Positions 1,371 to 9,124 of a DNA stretch of 64,000 nucleotides are shown piece by piece (the first letter of the stretch is position 1; each line of letters opens with the position of its first letter). Source of the DNA: Corallococcus exercitus (GTDB lineage: Bacteria > Myxococcota > Myxococcia > Myxococcales > Myxococcaceae); NCBI RefSeq assembly GCF_042231735.1, contig NZ_CP102577.1, positions 3,103,281-3,167,280 of the forward strand, given 5' to 3'. The notes under the pieces were generated by a model. That model saw only the letters and a program-made list of their open reading frames with translations, did no database searches and was not told the DNA's origin. Both the position numbers and the translations under genes were made by a program.

Positions 1371-1527
1371 GTCCCAACCTCCCAGGTCCGTGCTCCTTCG
1401 AGATAGTGTGCCAAGGACACCATCCCTGTAAAGGCTGACGGCTCGCGCGGTGTTCACGGTTCATGCGAAGCTCTTGCGCCCTTCCTTCCAGGAACGGGAC
1501 ACCCCATCCTCACGAGAGGCGCTCCGG

Positions 1528-4500
1528 ATGCGTCGACTCACCCTGCTGACTGCCCTCTGCCTGTCTGTCCTTTCCGCCTGCTCTCCCGTGGAGCCTGAGG
1601 CACCGGATGAACCCGAGACGCCTGCGGATGCCTCGCAGACCCAGGCCCTGGAGTTGACCCAGGTCTTCAACACCCACGTGACGTGGACTGGCGCGACCAA
1701 GTGCAGCACCTGCCAGCGGCCTTCCTATGCCTGCTCGGACAACACGGGGAACTGGAACGGTGGGGTCCAGAGCTTCAGGGATCCCCTCCCTCCCGGCTGG
1801 GTGGCGATGGAAGTGCACGTGGGCATTGGCGCCCGCGGCTATGACGGTGGCATCTCCACGGTCCGGTTGAACAACCTGGTGCTGGGGTCCTTCGGGCTCC
1901 CCGACCTGAGCTGGTTCGGGTGTGGCGCCTGCACGCCGCAGCAGGTCCGCTACGCCACGACCGAGCAGACGGGGCTGCCCGGCTACCAATACGGCGCCAT
2001 CAATACCCTCACGCTGCGCACGGAAGAGACCAACTGCTTCGCCTTCGCCGACATCAGCATCAAGGCGGGGCGGCCCGTGCTCACGGTCAAGCCCACCGAG
2101 GTGTCGTTCGGCTCGGTGGCGGTGGGCGCGTCCGCCACGCAGAAGGTGACCTTGACGAACGAGGGCATCGCCCCGCTCGTCATCACCGCCATGAATGTCC
2201 CAAGTCCCTTCGGGCTGAACTCCATCACCCTGCCCTTCACGCTCAAGGCCCGCTCCAGCCTGGACGTGACCGTGACGTTCGCGCCGAAGGACGAGCGGGC
2301 CGCCTCTGGGAACCTGACCATCGTGAGCAGTGATCCCGACAAGCCGTCGCGGTTGATCAAGCTCGAGGGGACCGGCGGTGCCGCGAAACTCCAGCTCAGC
2401 CCGACCTCGCTCGACTTCGGTGCCGTGCGGGCTGGCACGAGCAAGAGCCTCCCCCTCCAGCTGAAGAACGTGGGGACCGTGCCGCTCACGCTCTCCGCCG
2501 TCCTGACCCAGGCCCCCTTCTCCGTCAGCGGCTTTGCCTCGGGGGACGTCGTGCTGCAGCCCTCGGGCGTCCTCCCGCTCACGGTGACCTTCACGGCGAC
2601 GGCCGGGGAAGCCAACCAGCCGCTGTACATCCAGTCCCAGGGGACCACCACCACGCCGATCGCGGAGGTCGCGCTGCACGGCACGGGCACCCAGCCCGCC
2701 ATCTCCGTGGCCGCGACCGCGATGGACTTCGGCGTGCACACCGCGGGCATCGAGCCGGTTCGCCAGACGCTGACGGTGGGCAACACGGGCCAGGATGATC
2801 TGATCCTCACCGCCTTCGACGTGGAGGCGCCCTTCACCGTGGAGGCCGGCCTGCCGCTGACCATCAAGCCCTGGGAACAGAAGGACCTGCCGGTGGCCTT
2901 CGCTCCCGGAGCGGGCCGCGCCACGAAGGACCTCACCCTGCGCAGCAACGACCCGAACCGTCCCGCGTTCAAGGTGTCCCTCTCCGGCACCGGCGTGAAG
3001 GTCCCCGCGCTCCAGGTCACCGGGCCGGATGGCGGCACGGCGCTGGATTTCGGCTCGCGGGAGGTCAGCTCCGTGAGCGCACCCCAGACCCTGACGCTCA
3101 AGAACGAGGGCGCGGGGACGCTCGTGGTGGAGTCCATCCAGGCACCCACCGGCTTCGCCGTGACGCCCGCGGGCCGGCTCAGCCTGACGCCCGGCGCCGC
3201 GACCCAGCTCCAGGTGACCTTCGAGCCCTCGCATACCGCCCAGTTCACGGAGGAGCTGACGGTGAGCGCGGATGGTCCTGGTGGCTCCACCCAGGTCGTG
3301 CCGCTCAGTGGGCAGGGCGTCGAGGGAAAGCTGACCGCCAATCCCTCCGCGCTGTCCTTCTCCCGGACGGAAGTGGGCAAGAGCAGCAAGGCGGTGCAGG
3401 TCACGCTCGTCAACACGGGGACGGAGGCGATCACCCTCAGCACCATCGCGGTGGCGGGACCGTTCTCGGCGGTGCTTCCGAAGCTGCCCAAGGAGCTCAC
3501 GCCGCGCGACGCCTTCACGATGGAGGTCACCTTCAGTCCGCTCGAGGACGGCCCCGCGTCCGGCGCGCTCCGGGTGTTCTCCAACGCGCCGTCGTCCCCC
3601 ACGGTGGTGAAGCTGGAGGGTGAGGGGCTCCAGGCCATCGCCCGGATGGCGAGCGACGTGATGGAGTTCGGCGGCCAGCGGGTGGGCGGCGTGAGCGCGC
3701 CACGGGAGCTCACGCTGTTCAACACGGGAAGCGAGTCGCTGGATGTGACGGCGGTGAACGTGAGCGGTCCGTTCCTGATCTCCGGACTCAACGTGGGCAC
3801 CAGCGTGCCGCCGCTCGGGAGCCGCACGTTCCAGGTCAGCTACAAGCCCACCGAGACCACGGCGGAGAACGGCGTGCTGGAGGTCCAGAGCAACGCGCCG
3901 CGCACCGCCCAGGTGACGCTGCGGGGAACGGGGACCATGGCTTCAATCGAGGCCTCCGTGACGACGCTGGCCTTCGGTTCCCAGTTCCTGGGCGCGGCCG
4001 AGCAGCGCGTCGTGGAGCTGCGCAACACCGGCACGAGCCCCATCACGCTCACGGGGTTGGATCCGGTGGACGGGTTCTCCGTGTCGGGATTGCCGCTGCC
4101 CCATCAGCTGGAGGCCGGCACCAGTCACGCGTTCTCCGTGGTGTTCGCGCCGCCGCGGCCGGGCGAGTACGCCGGGTCGCTCGCCGTGCGGCACGACGCG
4201 TCCGCCACCCCGCTGATGGTCGCGGTGCAGGGGACCGGCGTGGCGCAGGCGCTGACGGTGACGCCCGGAGCCATCGCCTTCGGCAACCAGCGGGTGAACG
4301 CCACCAGCCAGTCCCTGCCCCTGGAGCTCGTCAACACGGGCAACGTGCCCGTCACCGTGCAGGTGACCTCCTCCGACGCCGCCTTCCAGGTGGACACGCG
4401 CGCGGTGGCCGAGGCCATTCCGGCGGGAGGCCGGGCCTCGGTGTCGGTGACGTTCCACCCGACGCGCACGGGCACGGTGCGCGGAGAGGTCCGCGTGGTG

Positions 4501-4668
4501 CCGAGCGGAGGCGGACTCGCCCCGACCATCGTTCCCGTGGAGGGGATTGGCGAGGCCGTCACGGTGGAGGGCAGCGGCTGCTCCGTGGGTGGGGCTGGTG
4601 GTGCCGGGGTGCTGGCGATGTGGCTCCTCGCCATGGGGATGATCCGGCGCGGGCGGCGGCACCGCTGA
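1528..4668 (+). CDS. Cell-surface lipoprotein with ~9 tandem choice-of-anchor-D/ASH-like ~100-aa domains and a C-terminal MYXO-CTERM sorting tail
   Basis: It has a lipoprotein signal (MRRLTLLTALCLSVLSAC). It carries repeated modules with FGxVxVGxSxxxxVTLTNxGxxPL motifs. The C-terminus GSGCSVGGAGGAGVLAMWLLAMGMIRRGRRHR fits MYXO-CTERM (Cys + Gly-rich + hydrophobic + Arg cluster). Confidence 0.8.
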   Translation: MRRLTLLTALCLSVLSACSPVEPEAPDEPETPADASQTQALELTQVFNTHVTWTGATKCSTCQRPSYACSDNTGNWNGGVQSFRDPLPPGWVAMEVHVGIGARGYDGGISTVRLNNLVLGSFGLPDLSWFGCGACTPQQVRYATTEQTGLPGYQYGAINTLTLRTEETNCFAFADISIKAGRPVLTVKPTEVSFGSVAVGASATQKVTLTNEGIAPLVITAMNVPSPFGLNSITLPFTLKARSSLDVTVTFAPKDERAASGNLTIVSSDPDKPSRLIKLEGTGGAAKLQLSPTSLDFGAVRAGTSKSLPLQLKNVGTVPLTLSAVLTQAPFSVSGFASGDVVLQPSGVLPLTVTFTATAGEANQPLYIQSQGTTTTPIAEVALHGTGTQPAISVAATAMDFGVHTAGIEPVRQTLTVGNTGQDDLILTAFDVEAPFTVEAGLPLTIKPWEQKDLPVAFAPGAGRATKDLTLRSNDPNRPAFKVSLSGTGVKVPALQVTGPDGGTALDFGSREVSSVSAPQTLTLKNEGAGTLVVESIQAPTGFAVTPAGRLSLTPGAATQLQVTFEPSHTAQFTEELTVSADGPGGSTQVVPLSGQGVEGKLTANPSALSFSRTEVGKSSKAVQVTLVNTGTEAITLSTIAVAGPFSAVLPKLPKELTPRDAFTMEVTFSPLEDGPASGALRVFSNAPSSPTVVKLEGEGLQAIARMASDVMEFGGQRVGGVSAPRELTLFNTGSESLDVTAVNVSGPFLISGLNVGTSVPPLGSRTFQVSYKPTETTAENGVLEVQSNAPRTAQVTLRGTGTMASIEASVTTLAFGSQFLGAAEQRVVELRNTGTSPITLTGLDPVDGFSVSGLPLPHQLEAGTSHAFSVVFAPPRPGEYAGSLAVRHDASATPLMVAVQGTGVAQALTVTPGAIAFGNQRVNATSQSLPLELVNTGNVPVTVQVTSSDAAFQVDTRAVAEAIPAGGRASVSVTFHPTRTGTVRGEVRVVPSGGGLAPTIVPVEGIGEAVTVEGSGCSVGGAGGAGVLAMWLLAMGMIRRGRRHR

Positions 4669-4711
4669 GCCTGCGCACCTCCGCGGTGGCCGCCTCTCCC
4701 CGAGGCGGTCC

Positions 4712-4995
4712 AAACCTGTCCGACAGTCGGACAGGTTTCCGCGGCGGGAGCCCGTCAGGGCCGGGGGCCGCCGGGGGTGTCGAAACCGGTCCGATTGTCG
4801 GACAGGTTTCCGCGGCGGGAGCCCGTCAGGGCCGGGGGGCCGCCGGGGTTGCCACAACCTGTCCGACAGTCGGACAGGTTTCAGTGGCGGAAGTCCATCA
4901 GGGCCCGGAGCCCGCCGGGGTTGCCACAACCTGTCCGACAGTCGGACCGGTTCGTGCGACGGGCGGCCGGCGGCGAGCCCCGGCAGGGTTCTCAT
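4712..4995. repeat. Tandem array of 4 copies of a ~70-74 bp unit, each starting with the 19-bp perfect palindrome CTGTCCGACAGTCGGACAG (copy 2 degenerate: GGTCCGATTGTCGGACAG); intergenic between convergent genes
   Basis: The palindrome copies start at ~4716, 4786, 4860 and 4931. Units 1-3 are conserved along their whole length (GGTTTCCGCGGCGGGAGCCCGTCAGGGCCGGGGGCCGCCGGGG...). Unit 4 diverges after the palindrome. All six frames translate it as repeats (PVRQSDRF/PVRLSDRL), so it is non-coding. Confidence 0.85.
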
Positions 4996-5031
4996 GTTCC
5001 AGCCATCCGAGGAGGGCTGCTGCCCGAACGC

Positions 5032-6612
5032 TCAGGGAGGAGGCGGCGCGGGAATGGGACGAGCCGGAGCGGGCTCGCCCAGGATCAACAGCAGCTCCGC
5101 GCGGCGGTTCTCGCCCCGGCCCGCCTGTGTGCCATTGGAGCTCGCGGGCCGGCGTGCACCGAGGCCCCGGGCTTCCAGGCGGTGGGCCGGGACGCCCTTC
5201 CGCAAGAGGTAGTCGCGCACGGCTTCCGCGCGGGCCAGGGACAGGCGCTGGTTGGAGGCGGAAGAGCCCTCCGCGTCCGTGTGCCCTTCGATGACGACGC
5301 GCTCGACTTCCGGATGCTCCAGGAGCACCCGCGCCACCTGATCCAGCACGCGCGAGCGGCCCGGCAGCGTCGTCGCGCCGACCTCGAAGAAGACCTGGCC
5401 ATGGAGGACCAGGCGCTCGCGGGTCAGGGTGACGAGCGGGTCGCCGGACTCAGGGCAACCGCCGTACTCCCGCGTCCCCTTCTCATGGACGCAGGCATCC
5501 AGCGCGTCCACGACGCCGTCTCCGTCCGTGTCGGTCTCGATGCCTGACGAGTTCCCGGACGGCTCTGGCGTGGGCTCGGGAGGCGTGGGTTCAGGAGGCG
5601 TGGGCTCGGGCTCGAGCTGGGGTTCGGCGGGAGCACGTGGCAGCCCTTGGACGATCTCATAGACGATGTCCTCCGGGGGCGGAGGCGGTGCCTTGTCGAA
5701 GAGCAGGGCCAGTCCCGCAAGCACCCGGAAGCGAGGGGAACCCGGCTCCGAGCCAACCCCCGCCCCGCCCATGGCGAAGAATTCCCAGGGCCGAGCGGGT
5801 GCGTAGCGAAGGCCGCCGAGCAGCTCGCCGCTGGTGCGCTGCTGCCGCCAGGAGTACGCACCGTTCGCGGACACCTCCGCGCGGAAGGCGTAACCCACGG
5901 TGAGCCCCACACCGGCCCGCAGCTCGTTGCCCACGCCGTTGAGGCTGTCCACGCCGGAGTCCGTCGACACGGCGCGACGCAGGAGCACGCCCACTTCCAG
6001 CGCCGGAGCCACGGGCCCCCAGCGCTTGCCCATCATGATCCGTCCCTGCCCGCGGACACCCTGGTCACGAGCCAGCGCTCCCGAGCCGCCCACGGGCAAC
6101 CGCACGTCCAGGTCGAGCGCCAGGTGAAAGGCCTCGGGAGCGGAGGTCCCCAGCAATCCCAGCCGGGCCGCGAGTCGCGGTGCCCCCAACCCGCTGCGTG
6201 ACGGAGGGGAGATGGACAGCACGGTGCTCACATCCGCACCGCTCTGGTGGATGACGCCAGGAAGCTGGGCCTGAAGCTCCAGCCAGGGCAGCACACCGAC
6301 GGCCAGCGACACCAGTCCGGTGGTCCGGGACAGGACGAGCGGGTACTCGTCCGACCCGTTCAGGATGGTCAGGGGAGCCCGCTGGTAGTGCGCCATCAGC
6401 GAGACGCGCACCGCCCCGGGCGCCAGCAGCTCGCCGCTTCCGAGCGCCAACGGCCCCAGCCCCGGATTCGGATCCAGGCGCTCCAGGGAGAACGTCGGCA
6501 GGGGCGTGGCGTCCTGGGCGCGCGCGGGGGATACGAGCAGCATCAGTCCCAGCGCGGCCCCGCCACGGACGCATCGGTGCAAGGCCGGACCCATGCGCGC
6601 ATCATCCGTCAT
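5032..6612 (-). CDS. OmpA-family outer-membrane protein (N-terminal beta-barrel-like domain, Pro/Glu-rich linker, TSP3-like DxDxDG Ca-binding motif, C-terminal OmpA peptidoglycan-binding domain)
   Basis: The C-terminus ...HGQVFFEVGATTLPGRSRVLDQVARVL...VIEGHTDAEGSSASNQRLSLARAEAVRDYLL...NRRAEL is canonical OmpA_C. It has a DTDGDGVVDALDAC motif, an EPTPPEPTPPEPTP linker and a signal-peptide-like N-terminus (ALGLMLLVSPARAQD). The start is uncertain (6594/6612/6651). Confidence 0.85.
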   Translation of the reverse strand: MTDDARMGPALHRCVRGGAALGLMLLVSPARAQDATPLPTFSLERLDPNPGLGPLALGSGELLAPGAVRVSLMAHYQRAPLTILNGSDEYPLVLSRTTGLVSLAVGVLPWLELQAQLPGVIHQSGADVSTVLSISPPSRSGLGAPRLAARLGLLGTSAPEAFHLALDLDVRLPVGGSGALARDQGVRGQGRIMMGKRWGPVAPALEVGVLLRRAVSTDSGVDSLNGVGNELRAGVGLTVGYAFRAEVSANGAYSWRQQRTSGELLGGLRYAPARPWEFFAMGGAGVGSEPGSPRFRVLAGLALLFDKAPPPPPEDIVYEIVQGLPRAPAEPQLEPEPTPPEPTPPEPTPEPSGNSSGIETDTDGDGVVDALDACVHEKGTREYGGCPESGDPLVTLTRERLVLHGQVFFEVGATTLPGRSRVLDQVARVLLEHPEVERVVIEGHTDAEGSSASNQRLSLARAEAVRDYLLRKGVPAHRLEARGLGARRPASSNGTQAGRGENRRAELLLILGEPAPARPIPAPPPP

Positions 6613-6741
6613 GTTCCGCCCGGGGCGAAGGGGAATGGCGGCGCGCGGCATTCGTGCATCGTCACCGGAATGGATGCGACTCCGATTCCATTCCAGAATC
6701 CCAGACTAGACTGCGCCGGCAGCGCCCCCCACGGAAACACG

Positions 6742-6803
6742 CTCAGACAAGGGTAGCCACAAGGCATCCTGACACAAGGCAAGAAGGCCAAAAGGACAAG
6801 AAG
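6742..6803 (+). promoter_or_regulatory. Cluster of short direct repeats (G/C)ACAAGG x3 plus AAGAAGG/AAAAGGA variants in the divergent intergenic region at the left edge of the AT-rich island
   Basis: agaCAAGGgtagccaCAAGGcatcctgacaCAAGGcaAGAAGGccaAAAGGacAAGAAGc lies ~80-130 bp upstream of the island ORF at 6879. These are possible transcription-factor sites or a promoter. There is no functional evidence. Confidence 0.25.
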
Positions 6804-6878
6804 CAGAGTAGTCCGGCACGCATCCCTGATAACCTGCTGCCCATGCAAAACCTACAGGCACATTGGGACAAAAAATGA

Positions 6879-8021
6879 ATGAACAAGCACCTTAAGCTCG
6901 ACGTGCAAGTCGCTGAAGATGACCCAATTCGAAAATCATTGCTCAACCAACGGGTACAGCACTTAGAATCTGATGGTCTGAGTGTTCCCGAAGATGAGCT
7001 TCTTACATATTCCTTGTTCTACGAGTGGGACAACTCTCCAGGATGGCGGAGCTACGCCGATCTGAACAGGAAGCTTCCAGAGCGACGCACCCGGTTTGGG
7101 GACTTCCTAACAACAGACGCAGAAGAATCCTACCGACTTCGGCGCAAACCAGTATCGGACATCATTGAGTCGCTGGGCATTGGAGCAGCTCTCTCTGTCT
7201 CAGCTAGATTACTAGGGGTAACCGAGGCAGATTTCCTGAAAGTCCCAGACACCTCACTGGGAAGAACATTGGACTTCGAAAGAAGCTATGTCGCATCCGA
7301 TGGCGATCACTCCTACCGAGTAGAAGCCAAAGGAACGCACGATGGAAAGAGCGTCTCTTCAGCTCTCGACTCAATTAAAGCCAAGAAAATCTTTGACCGC
7401 AATTCAAAACAAGACGATGCTACCCTTGTTGGTGTTGTTTTCGATTTATCACTAGAGCGAAAACGCACATCCAAGGTAATTATCACTGACCCACCGGCAG
7501 AACCGATCCCCGAAAATCCAATTCTTATAAAACTATGGGCCCGACTTGGCTTTTACTCAGCGGCGCTGCGAACGATTTCCCGTGGCTCAATCACTGCAGG
7601 ATTTGCACAGCGACTCCCCGTCACAAGAGCACTTGGGGATCAGTGGCGGAAGGTTGATGGAATACCTCTCGTCAACCCAAGCGGCTATCCACTTGCTGTC
7701 TCATGGAACAAAAGCGGCATAGTTACACTTGCTTCACGGGAGCGGATTTTTGGACGATTCTTTGGCCCTGCATCAAAATCAACACGCAGGCAAACATCCT
7801 CTGAAGATGTGTCCATCTTCATCGGCTTGACTGAAAACACAATAGAACTGCTCACCAAACAGCGCCTCGAAGAAATAATATACCACAAAGAACGAGAAAG
7901 AGTTGCGGAAGCGAGCTACCCAGCCTATTCGCCATTTGAGGCTCGACCGCCATTTCGCTTTCAACATCTGCGCGTTTTTTCTTCGGGTGTTGTTGTGGGA
8001 TACCTTATCGGCAACGTTTGA
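6879..8021 (+). CDS. Hypothetical protein (380 aa) encoded on AT-rich island; no confidently recognisable domain
   Basis: The 1143-nt ORF sits in a region visibly poorer in GC than the flanks (roughly 45-50% by eye against ~70%). Codon use is atypical for the host (many A/T-ending codons). Weak motifs only: LDFERSYVASDGDHSYRVEAKG (D-x17-ExK, PD-(D/E)xK-like) and IIESLGIGAAL ... ITDPPAEP (loosely SAM-MTase motif I/IV-like but lacking the aromatic residue). The start has no obvious RBS. Confidence 0.55.
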   Translation: MNKHLKLDVQVAEDDPIRKSLLNQRVQHLESDGLSVPEDELLTYSLFYEWDNSPGWRSYADLNRKLPERRTRFGDFLTTDAEESYRLRRKPVSDIIESLGIGAALSVSARLLGVTEADFLKVPDTSLGRTLDFERSYVASDGDHSYRVEAKGTHDGKSVSSALDSIKAKKIFDRNSKQDDATLVGVVFDLSLERKRTSKVIITDPPAEPIPENPILIKLWARLGFYSAALRTISRGSITAGFAQRLPVTRALGDQWRKVDGIPLVNPSGYPLAVSWNKSGIVTLASRERIFGRFFGPASKSTRRQTSSEDVSIFIGLTENTIELLTKQRLEEIIYHKERERVAEASYPAYSPFEARPPFRFQHLRVFSSGVVVGYLIGNV

Positions 8022-8037
8022 GGCAATTGGGCCACCT

Positions 8038-8163
8038 CTCTATAGTCGCAGATTGACGCGGATTCCACGGGAGTGGCATCGGCAGCGCATGGCAACCGCT
8101 CGCTGATTGCGTTGGTAGAGGGGCACACTGAGGTCAAGTCCAACCCCGCTCCGATCTATAGTT
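8038..8163 (+). promoter_or_regulatory. Two copies of the palindromic hexamer CTATAG in similar context (cTCTATAGTcgcag / aTCTATAGTtcacg), 117 bp apart, in the 222-bp gap between the two island genes
   Basis: CTATAG is A/T-rich and self-complementary, so it is unexpected in this GC-rich genome. The pair lies upstream of the GTG start of the second island gene. It is a possible operator. Confidence 0.25.
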
Positions 8164-8242
8164 CACGAACGCGAACGCGCAGGCTGCGCGCGAGTAGAGT
8201 GCACAGGTCCAGTGCCGCAGTTCACGGGGGGAGGAGTCTAAA

Positions 8243-8770
8243 GTGCCTGAATTCTACGTTGAGGGGCCGTTCATTGTGCCGTGCATTGCAAAGGGGCATG
8301 GGAAAGTCGTCGACACGAAACGCTTGAAGGAGTTCTGGGAAGACCTCGGCGAGGGCAGGTCGTCCAGTTACGGCTGTTACGTTTTCGGGATGCAAGTCGG
8401 ACGAGGCCTCGTGCCAATCTATGTCGGCAAGGCCACCAAGAGTTTCAAGCAAGAGTGCTTCACGCTCGACAAGTTGTTCAAGACCAACGCATCGCTGCTT
8501 CACTGGAAGCGAGGCACCCCTGTTCTCTTTCTTGTGCCTTTGGAACGCAAGAGAGGCCGGGTTAACGCAGCCTTGATCGCTACTGCCGAGGAATTCCTCA
8601 TTCAGAACGCCGTCGTCCGTAATCCTAACCTTGCGAATGTTCGTGGCACCGAGCAGGAATCATGGGGAATTGCCGGTGTTCTTCGTGGTGGAAAAGGAAA
8701 GCCATCCGCAAGCGCGCGGGACTTCAAACGGATGATGGGGCTGAGACAGCGTTCCTCCCAGCCAGGATGA
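8243..8770 (+). CDS. Small GIY-YIG-like nuclease-domain protein (175 aa), second gene of AT-rich island
   Basis: It has a GTG start with a GGAGGAG RBS at 8228-8234. SYGCYVFGMQVGRGLVPIYVGKATKSF parallels the UvrC/I-TevI GIY-(x10-13)-YIG motif (cf. UvrC [21 protein letters not shown]). Downstream, ATAEEFLIQNAVVRNPNLAN fits the conserved Glu ... Asn of the fold. The canonical Arg after YIG is not obvious. Confidence 0.5.
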   Translation: MPEFYVEGPFIVPCIAKGHGKVVDTKRLKEFWEDLGEGRSSSYGCYVFGMQVGRGLVPIYVGKATKSFKQECFTLDKLFKTNASLLHWKRGTPVLFLVPLERKRGRVNAALIATAEEFLIQNAVVRNPNLANVRGTEQESWGIAGVLRGGKGKPSASARDFKRMMGLRQRSSQPG

Positions 8771-9096
8771 CTCCAGGATTGCAAAGTGACGACGTCGGTG
8801 GGGCTAGTGGGGTCCTCGATGCTGTTTCTCGCCTGCTGATCTGATGCGACGCGGGACACACCGCCGGAGCCGCAGGCCACGAAGGCAGACAGCCCCGTGC
8901 ACATCCTGGCGCCGCATAACAACTGTGACGAAACGTGGATGCTGGTTGTTGCCGCGTCTACAGCGACCGCGTGCCCTGCAACAATGGCATTGAGATGTAT
9001 GCCATCTGGACGCCGGGCGGCTGGTGCAGCCCGCGCGACGTCGCCAAAAGCAGCGAGGGCCCTGAGCTGGTCTGCCCGCAGTGACGCATCACGGAC

Positions 9097-9124
9097 CTCC
9101 CTGCCCTCAGCACGGGCAGGGAGG
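9097..9124 (-). terminator. GC-rich hairpin (11-bp stem CCTCCCTGCCC/GGGCAGGGAGG, 6-nt loop) 14 nt downstream of the folD stop
   Basis: The inverted repeat was read directly. No U-tract follows on the minus strand, so intrinsic-terminator function is uncertain. Confidence 0.35.

Follow-up and report, generated by a model that had tools for sequence, protein, structure and literature searches.

Why should four copies of a long palindrome lie in tandem between the 3′ ends of two convergent genes? The question is raised by a 64,000-nt stretch of Corallococcus exercitus DNA (NZ_CP102577.1, positions 3,103,281–3,167,280; hereafter the window, to whose positions all unlabelled coordinates refer), in which an array of palindromic units of about 72 bp separates the stop of a plus-strand open reading frame (ORF; 1450–4668) for a surface protein with repeated Ig-like domains from the stop of a minus-strand ORF (5032–6651) for an OmpA-family protein. 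As set out below, we read the unit as an undescribed element resembling repetitive extragenic palindromes (REPs) and the bacterial interspersed mosaic elements (BIMEs) built from them, whose core is probably an operator to which regulators of the FadR/GntR family would bind. To the full explanation, in which the array arose by local amplification of this dispersed element and the core is a putative operator of a multi-copy FadR/GntR family, we assign a probability of roughly 0.58.

That a four-copy array of this period lies between the two genes, as an earlier note on this DNA had described, is borne out by Tandem Repeats Finder (TRF), which reports a single array of 72-nt period at 4713–4952 (3.4 copies, 87% matches) whose score of 357 is by far the best in the window, and by four occurrences of the 19-mer CTGTCCGACAGTCGGACAG, starting at 4716, 4787, 4859 and 4931 with 0, 3, 0 and 1 mismatches and a core spacing of 71–72 bp. 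No further match to the 19-mer occurs across the 64 kb (0.02 expected by chance), and of the six hairpins in the window whose stems reach 11 bp or more, four are the array cores. Unit 1 (4700–4770) contains a perfect core (4716–4734) within a perfect 13-1-13 palindrome (AAACCTGTCCGAC-A-GTCGGACAGGTTT, 4712–4738), so that the inverted repeat, originally given as 9-1-9, is longer than stated; its two boxes are GTCCGAC (4718–4724) and GTCGGAC (4726–4732). Unit 2 (4771–4842) has the variant core CGGTCCGATTGTCGGACAG (4787–4805), with an imperfect box GTCCGAT (4789–4795) and GTCGGAC (4797–4803), and the same variant recurs in an array of another Corallococcus genome (L060). Unit 3 (4843–4914) again has a perfect core (4859–4877), in a 12-1-12 palindrome (4856–4880), and the core of unit 4 (4915–4994), at 4931–4949, carries one mismatch and ends in CCG. 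The perfect 19-bp palindrome attributed to every unit is therefore present in units 1 and 3 but not in units 2 and 4.

Nor are units 1–3 near-identical over their full length, as had been claimed: their pairwise identities are 88%, 81% and 79%, the spacer being nearly the same in units 1 and 2 and diverged in unit 3 (79–81% identity to both), and unit 4 matches the others at 69–76%. Similarly, the flanking GGTTT on both strands is confined to units 1 and 2: on the left it gives way to ACAACC in units 3 and 4, and on the right to CGGTTC in unit 4. The distal right arm of unit 4 (4953–4994) is not unique to this locus, as a solo element in C. carmarthensis has a matching right arm, and BLASTN aligns 4924–4994 to positions 5029–5099 of locus L046 at 82%. 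To the left of unit 1, the stretch GCCGCCTCTCCCCGAGGCGGTCC (4689–4711) forms a small hairpin that folds on itself in the folds of both strands; judging from the family consensus, it would stand in for the left outer arm of the first element.

Orthologous loci show how the array came about. The spacer between the same two genes holds one core in C. coralloides (L020) and in C. interemptor (L069), against four in the window, and the array is thus a lineage-specific amplification: a resident copy of the element was amplified locally in tandem, from one to four units. (L-numbers denote the loci fetched for comparison, which total 716 kb around 88 clusters.) In Corallococcus sp. 4LFB (L086, GCA_046520365.1, 3950–4075), the OmpA and Ig-repeat genes overlap tail to tail, and the spacer, the element and both gene ends are missing, owing either to a deletion across the repeat-bearing spacer or to a misassembly. 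Copy number, whose variation the earlier note had proposed to check, is accordingly 4, 1, 1 and 0 among species. In the three loci recovered from more distant species, the OmpA gene lies in a different gene context and the element is absent. Variation of this kind is also seen at other sites: one orthologous site carries one core in L038 and eight in L040, and where C. interemptor has a regulator gene and two cores, C. coralloides has an array of 13 units.

The core belongs to a dispersed family, as the suggestion of a REP-like repeat, or of one akin to the miniature transposable elements with inverted repeats known as MITEs, had anticipated; the refuting case named in the earlier note, a unit found nowhere but at this locus, does not apply. 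When one genome per species was scanned for CTGTCCGACNGTCGGACAG, at least 84 matching stretches were found, in at least 80 blocks of Corallococcus and related myxobacteria. Among the matches listed, nearly all are from Corallococcus species, with 16 separate 8-kb blocks on the complete chromosome of C. coralloides KYC2213 and 13 contigs of C. interemptor; the other carriers are an Archangiaceae-like metagenome-assembled genome (MAG), an Archangium MAG, Hyalangium and a Myxococcaceae MAG. The fetched loci contain 111 perfect cores and 74 with one to three mismatches, whereas a reversed-sequence control yielded none at up to three mismatches. The central base of the core is A and T equally often, and the element is therefore present in both orientations. 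Separately, scan matches in Gemmatimonadaceae and Phycisphaerae (L017, L055 and L061) proved to be (CTGTCCGA)n microsatellites and were set aside as unrelated.

When genes were called crudely from the GC content of third codon positions (GC3), about 82% of the DNA came out as coding, yet 57 of the 71 clusters that could be classified fell between genes (P = 6e-30). Two perfect cores lie within large ORFs resembling nonribosomal peptide synthetase (NRPS) genes (L063 3258–3276 and L066 3852–3870; GC3 0.88–0.95), where their in-frame translations are PVRLSDRF and KPVRQSDRF; a few copies are thus genuinely intragenic. The best match of the element to the Rfam covariance models scored 24 bits, against gathering scores of 37–100, and our literature search found nothing that ties myxobacteria to REP or MITE elements and nothing that contains the core sequence, in agreement with the earlier note, which knew of no myxobacterial family with this core. 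As far as this search goes the element is undescribed, the main caveat being a dispersed intergenic repeat of Myxococcus xanthus with a core of less than 100 bp, reportedly described by Fujitani, Komano and Inouye (J. Bacteriol. 1991), to which the element might be related.

Across these loci the element is a palindromic unit of about 70–75 bp around a 25-bp core, AACCTGTCCGAC-W-GTCGGACAGGTT, with the flanking consensus aAAC...GTTt. Its limits are clearest in an Archangiaceae subfamily, in which an imperfect palindrome of about 73 nt (GGACCCTCCGGGCKCGGTT..GAAAAAC-core-GTTTTTGAAAAGCGCGMCCGGGAGG) has sharp, well-defined ends (GGACCCTCCGGGCKCGG...CGCGMCCGGGAGG); the Corallococcus copies hardly vary over the central 25 bp and show only weak conservation in the arms. 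Because the unit is about 73 nt long, each 72-bp period in the window amounts to a complete element, and successive elements follow one another head to tail. Arrays occur often, have periods of about 72, 92, 125, 138 and 150 bp, and include one of 13 units of 92 bp (L028), two of about 13 units of about 72 bp (L060 and L027+L039) and two of 8 to 10 units (L040 and L009). Spacers vary from array to array and drift within old arrays, and cores stay conserved. Adjacent units have the same central base in 61 cases and different ones in 20, such that most arrays run head to tail (TRF detects direct repeats). One array, in C. exercitus (L058 581–834), is the only one with alternating central bases (T A T A T), and its spacings alternate between 45 and 72 bp in a BIME-like manner. 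In the Archangiaceae-like and Archangium MAGs, the same outer arms enclose three palindromic core types that form mosaics about 100 bp apart (L080 5650–5870, L016 1905–2035, L051 6700–6835, L025 1000–1120 and L037 5470–5600): type A is the element studied here, type B is AACTTGTACAC...GTGTACAAGTT and type C is AACTGGTCCGATGGTCGGACCAGTT. No other palindromic core type is repeated in the Corallococcus loci.

Is it the hairpin or the sequence of the core that is kept? In an alignment of 190 copies, positions G3, T4, C5, G7, A8, G11, T12, C13, G15, A16 and C17 are near-invariant and positions 2, 6, 9, 10, 14, 18 and 19 vary, leaving a conserved pattern, GTC.GA(C).GTC.GAC, that can be read as two GT-N3-AC boxes. 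We looked in these copies for covariation that would maintain the hairpin and found none: changes are single-sided, one partner alone having changed 30 times at pair 6/14 and 39 times at pair 2/18, where compensated changes number 1 and 3, respectively. Because changes in the core are almost never compensated, the sequence is conserved and not the hairpin, which weakens models that depend on a hairpin in RNA or single-stranded DNA (ssDNA) and favors recognition by a sequence-specific dimeric protein. From its pattern of conservation, the core is best read as two adjacent GTC-S-GAC heptamers 8 bp apart, each of them a GT-N3-AC dyad. The idea of a reiterated site for a dimeric regulator has thus become the best-supported reading, refined from a 9-1-9 repeat to two GTC-S-GAC boxes with a FadR/GntR-family protein as the candidate binder.

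This candidate comes from the neighborhood of the core itself. All-against-all BLAST of the loci revealed that about 0.8–1.3 kb beside the core is repeated at unlinked loci, with the homology between paralogues starting at the core, and that the repeated segment encodes a FadR/GntR-family protein with a GntR helix-turn-helix domain (PF00392) and no catalytic domain. Its predicted structure comprises a winged helix-turn-helix (wHTH), an all-helical FadR C-terminal domain (FCD) and a disordered tail, and the best matches of this predicted fold in the PDB all belong to the FadR subfamily (FadR, NanR, VanR, PmiR, McbR and DhdR). By tblastn, 12 of the 81 blocks with a core contain the regulator gene, against an expectation of about one (P ~1e-9 to 1e-11), and in all 13 sampled regulator genes a core lies 124–156 nt upstream of the anchor GLVAYVE, about 55–85 nt upstream of a conserved ATGTCAGACCCC leader with a conserved ATG. 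Because the same palindrome precedes every sampled gene of this family, the core probably serves to bind a protein, and not as a terminator or as part of a CRISPR locus. The regulator aligns without gaps to E. coli FadR, and among the residues with which FadR contacts DNA, R45, T47 and R49 do not vary within the family (contact list from PMC4259882); the FadR site of E. coli fadL, AGCTGGTCCGACCTATACT, contains the heptamer GTCCGAC (PMC4259882). Operators of the GntR/FadR subfamily are recognized by a dyad with a GT-N(x)-AC core near the promoter of a GntR-family gene, and the two boxes upstream of the regulator genes agree with this.

The regulator family is narrow and has multiplied within lineages. 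Only 52 representatives have E <= 1e-30 among 1.84 billion proteins, after which scores drop sharply to those of generic GntR proteins; the best 120 database matches are all from Corallococcus, and a metagenome scan with the regulator returned one unrelated weak match. At least 10 paralogues are present on one C. exercitus chromosome and at least 11 in C. macrosporus. Identity within a genome is 91–100%, whereas the best cross-species match is 79–87%, which indicates bursts within single lineages or concerted evolution. Often there is a second core 1.07–1.15 kb downstream of the regulator gene, within the annotated low-complexity tail, where it reads NLSDSRTG. In distant members of the family (Hyalangium and metagenomes), the 3′ tails contain two to five lineage-specific element-like repeats that read NRSACQTGS, NLSACHTGS or NLSGCRTGS; in a Hyalangium sp. 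homologue (L094, DASPHO010000619.1), for example, the 3′ end of the gene (2944–3015) holds at least two copies of a variant element, AACCTGACTGCYTGTCATACAGGTT, that keeps the outer AACCTG..CAGGTT and is changed in its inner part. These repeats indicate that the gene and its element arrays travel together while the core sequence changes.

The regulator tails themselves are 100–170 aa long, predicted to be disordered and variable in length among paralogues. Among the 120 database FadR-like proteins, 16 (P0124, P0132, P0155, P0172 and others) run through the downstream palindrome, with tails containing NLSD[SC]RTG, and the same read-through is seen at L002 3465, L068 1426 and L070 1579. Part of the annotated tail may be translated repeat DNA rather than protein.

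Taken together, these results outline how the element could work. Regulator dimers would bind the core as an operator and autoregulate their own genes, the regulator gene and its flanking elements would duplicate as one unit, and solo elements and arrays would be dispersed copies of one binding site. Arrays would grow and shrink by slippage or unequal recombination between units, and may serve as stretches of homology at which the gene unit lands, or as decoys. The array in the window lies at the 3′ ends of convergent genes with no promoter to control, and for that reason its putative binding boxes, up to eight in number, most likely make up a neutral or decoy cluster; at most, the array may form a protein- or hairpin-based roadblock between the two transcription units.

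Several observations weigh against this explanation. The operator assignment draws on position, motif type and co-occurrence, and 12 of the 13 regulator loci were obtained by way of a perfect core (L091 was reached through the protein). Seventeen Archangiaceae MAG loci carry type-A cores without the family gene, the Hyalangium homologue lacks a type-A core upstream, and tblastn detects no member of the regulator family within the 64-kb window. Beside the core in front of the regulator gene, a sigma-70-like promoter was looked for without success, and canonical promoters and terminators were detected neither there nor at the array. So many copies of the element, in arrays of as many as 13 units, are far more than a normal regulon would contain. 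Finally, among the recovered orthologous loci, none resolved a clean empty site or a target-site duplication.

One reading goes further than ours. The element and the FadR/GntR gene might together constitute a self-propagating module of a kind undescribed before, a repressor gene with arrays of its own operator on either side; needing no dedicated transposase, this module would multiply within each lineage of Corallococcus through recombination, or gene conversion, into arrays that were already there, and arrays such as that in the window would act as landing pads and decoy sites. We put this forward tentatively and think it rather unlikely.

It is improbable that the 72-bp unit is instead a MITE, that is, a non-autonomous deletion derivative of an insertion sequence (IS), with its arms serving as terminal inverted repeats for a DDE transposase and the array being a minisatellite within or between copies. 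The element is dispersed and non-coding, the whole unit is an imperfect inverted repeat with clear ends in the Archangiaceae subfamily, and a MITE containing a minisatellite is known from Porphyromonas gingivalis (PMC4596501). However, besides the want of a resolved target-site duplication or empty site, none of the loci shows a transposase with matching termini, and the pattern of conservation in Corallococcus, with a nearly invariant centre between weakly conserved outer arms, is the opposite of that of a MITE, whose termini are conserved.

Slightly less probable again is a classical REP/BIME system, in which the palindromes are hairpin substrates mobilized as ssDNA by a REP-associated tyrosine transposase (RAYT), arrays are BIMEs and the FadR-like genes are bystanders. 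REPs are in general short GC-rich palindromes that occur extragenically, in high copy and in regularly spaced clusters (PMC2817692), and by its length (core 25–27 bp, within the 20–40 bp of REPs), composition, copy number and location our element would pass for one; moreover, a gene bracketed by two cores mimics the layout of a RAYT between REPs, and the mosaics of three core types on shared arms in the Archangiaceae MAG are BIME-like. But the bracketed gene encodes a wHTH+FCD regulator without a catalytic domain, and tblastn with E. coli RayT found no match in the fetched 716 kb (best E = 0.43). REP palindromes carry at one end a conserved tetranucleotide, GTAG or CGTC (PMC3733652), whereas GTAG, CTAC, CGTC or GACG lies within 10 nt of the core ends in only 8 of 142 copies. 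REP orientation alternates within clusters (PMC2817692), and here, as the central bases show, neighboring units mostly share theirs. The uncompensated changes in the core likewise indicate that the hairpin is not the conserved feature.

The earlier note had also proposed a stack of bidirectional terminators, and the chance is slim that the hairpins serve the convergent genes as intrinsic terminators of this kind or as 3′-end stabilizers of their mRNAs. Stems of 12–13 bp, rich in GC and flanked by A- and T-runs (AAAC...GTTT), would suit such a role, as would the intergenic RNA, which folds far better than shuffled sequences on both strands (z = −7.3 and −7.1), the 5-T runs of the Archangiaceae subfamily and a modest over-representation of elements in convergent gaps (19 of 57, against a baseline of 90 of 433; odds ratio 1.9, p = 0.04). 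Yet a scan of 4300–5400 yields no terminator-like site, and T-runs are at most 3 nt in the window units and mostly 2–3 nt (mode 3) in the family. Divergent gaps, which contain promoters, are not depleted, holding elements at about the baseline rate (9 of 57 against 79 of 433), and between tandem genes the element shows no preference for the upstream stop, lying nearer to it in 15 cases and nearer to the downstream start in 13. Cores upstream of regulator genes and inside the two NRPS-like coding sequences fit termination poorly, and the uncompensated stem changes speak against selection for pairing.

There is practically no chance that the array is a neutral tandem duplication specific to this locus and without relatives, since the core and the unit of about 72 bp occur at dozens of unlinked loci in many genomes, even if the near-identical spacers of units 1 and 2 look like the product of a recent duplication. 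A CRISPR array was likewise rejected, as in the earlier note, because the spacers of units 1–3 are copies of each other (87% over the 72-nt period) and the spacers of other arrays are interrelated too.

Of the flanking genes, the upstream one (1450–4668, plus strand, GC3 0.91) encodes a 1072-aa surface protein with repeated Ig-like domains of the HYDIN/ASH and choice-of-anchor D type (Pfam PF22544 and PF15780; NCBIfam NF012200, 340 bits). The earlier assignment to the MYXO-CTERM surface proteins therefore stands as regards the surface protein; its tail is MYXO-CTERM-like, scoring 18.1 bits with TIGR03901, below the curated cut-off of 20. The downstream gene (5032–6651, minus strand), taken from the start to be of the OmpA family, does encode a 539-aa protein of that family (Pfam PF00691), with orthologues across Corallococcus spp. 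at 84–94% identity; its best NCBIfam match is to the outer-membrane exchange protein TraB (NF033763; 132 bits, cut-off 700), of which it may be a paralogue. Directly upstream of this gene lies a low-GC island (6650–9100; 49–59% GC against 70–73% around it), in which an ORF for 380 aa (6879–8021) has no Pfam or PADLOC match. The island does not align with the orthologous C. interemptor locus (L069) and hence looks variable and possibly acquired. At its edge is the sole other long intergenic hairpin in the window (9096–9124, CCTCCCTGCCCTCAGCACGGGCAGGGAGG, 12-bp stem), whose sequence is unrelated to the core.

If the core is indeed the operator of an expanded FadR-like family, Corallococcus genomes would contain at least dozens, and possibly a hundred or more, dispersed sites for near-identical, lineage-amplified regulators, which would be an unusual way of building or perturbing a regulatory network and a rare case of a bacterial repeat family partnered with a DNA-binding protein and not with a transposase. 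Annotation of myxobacterial genomes should in any case mask or label the element, whose palindromes are at present being translated as spurious tails of proteins, NLSDSRTG being one example. Arrays are likely sites of assembly breaks and rearrangements, one strain having lost the whole spacer and both gene ends, and their variability makes them ready-made variable-number tandem repeat (VNTR) markers for the typing of Corallococcus strains.

In this last respect, the element resembles the mycobacterial interspersed repetitive unit (MIRU)-VNTR loci of Mycobacterium, intergenic units of about 50–100 bp that occur at many loci with a tandem copy number that varies between strains, but MIRUs are neither palindromic nor associated with a regulator. 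With bacterial MITEs (PMC4596501), it shares the form of a non-coding imperfect inverted repeat of about 70 bp that is dispersed and sometimes in tandem; it differs in conserving its centre instead of its termini, and a parent IS was not identified. Closer still in form are the REP/BIME and RAYT systems of Enterobacteria and Pseudomonas (PMC2817692, PMC3733652), which are likewise short, GC-rich, extragenic palindromes in spaced clusters, vary in copy number among relatives, bracket a protein gene and are known as protein-binding sites. The element departs from them in lacking the GTAG/CGTC head, in its head-to-tail clusters, in conserving the sequence of two GTC-S-GAC boxes instead of a stem, and in bracketing a multi-copy FadR/GntR regulator gene in place of a single-copy Y1 transposase gene, RAYT being undetected in the sample. 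As for operators of the FadR/PdhR type (GntR family, FadR subfamily), the core has their GT-N3-AC dyads and the heptamer of the fadL site (PMC4259882), and it lies just upstream of a FadR-subfamily gene, as in autoregulation, whose product retains R45, T47 and R49. Unlike these operators, it fuses two boxes at an 8-bp pitch into one palindrome of 19–25 bp, and the element is present in at least dozens of copies per genome, in tandem arrays of up to 13 and in many places without a promoter. Should the regulator gene and the element prove to propagate together as a module, they would represent a transcription-factor-based analogue of the partnership between RAYTs and REPINs.

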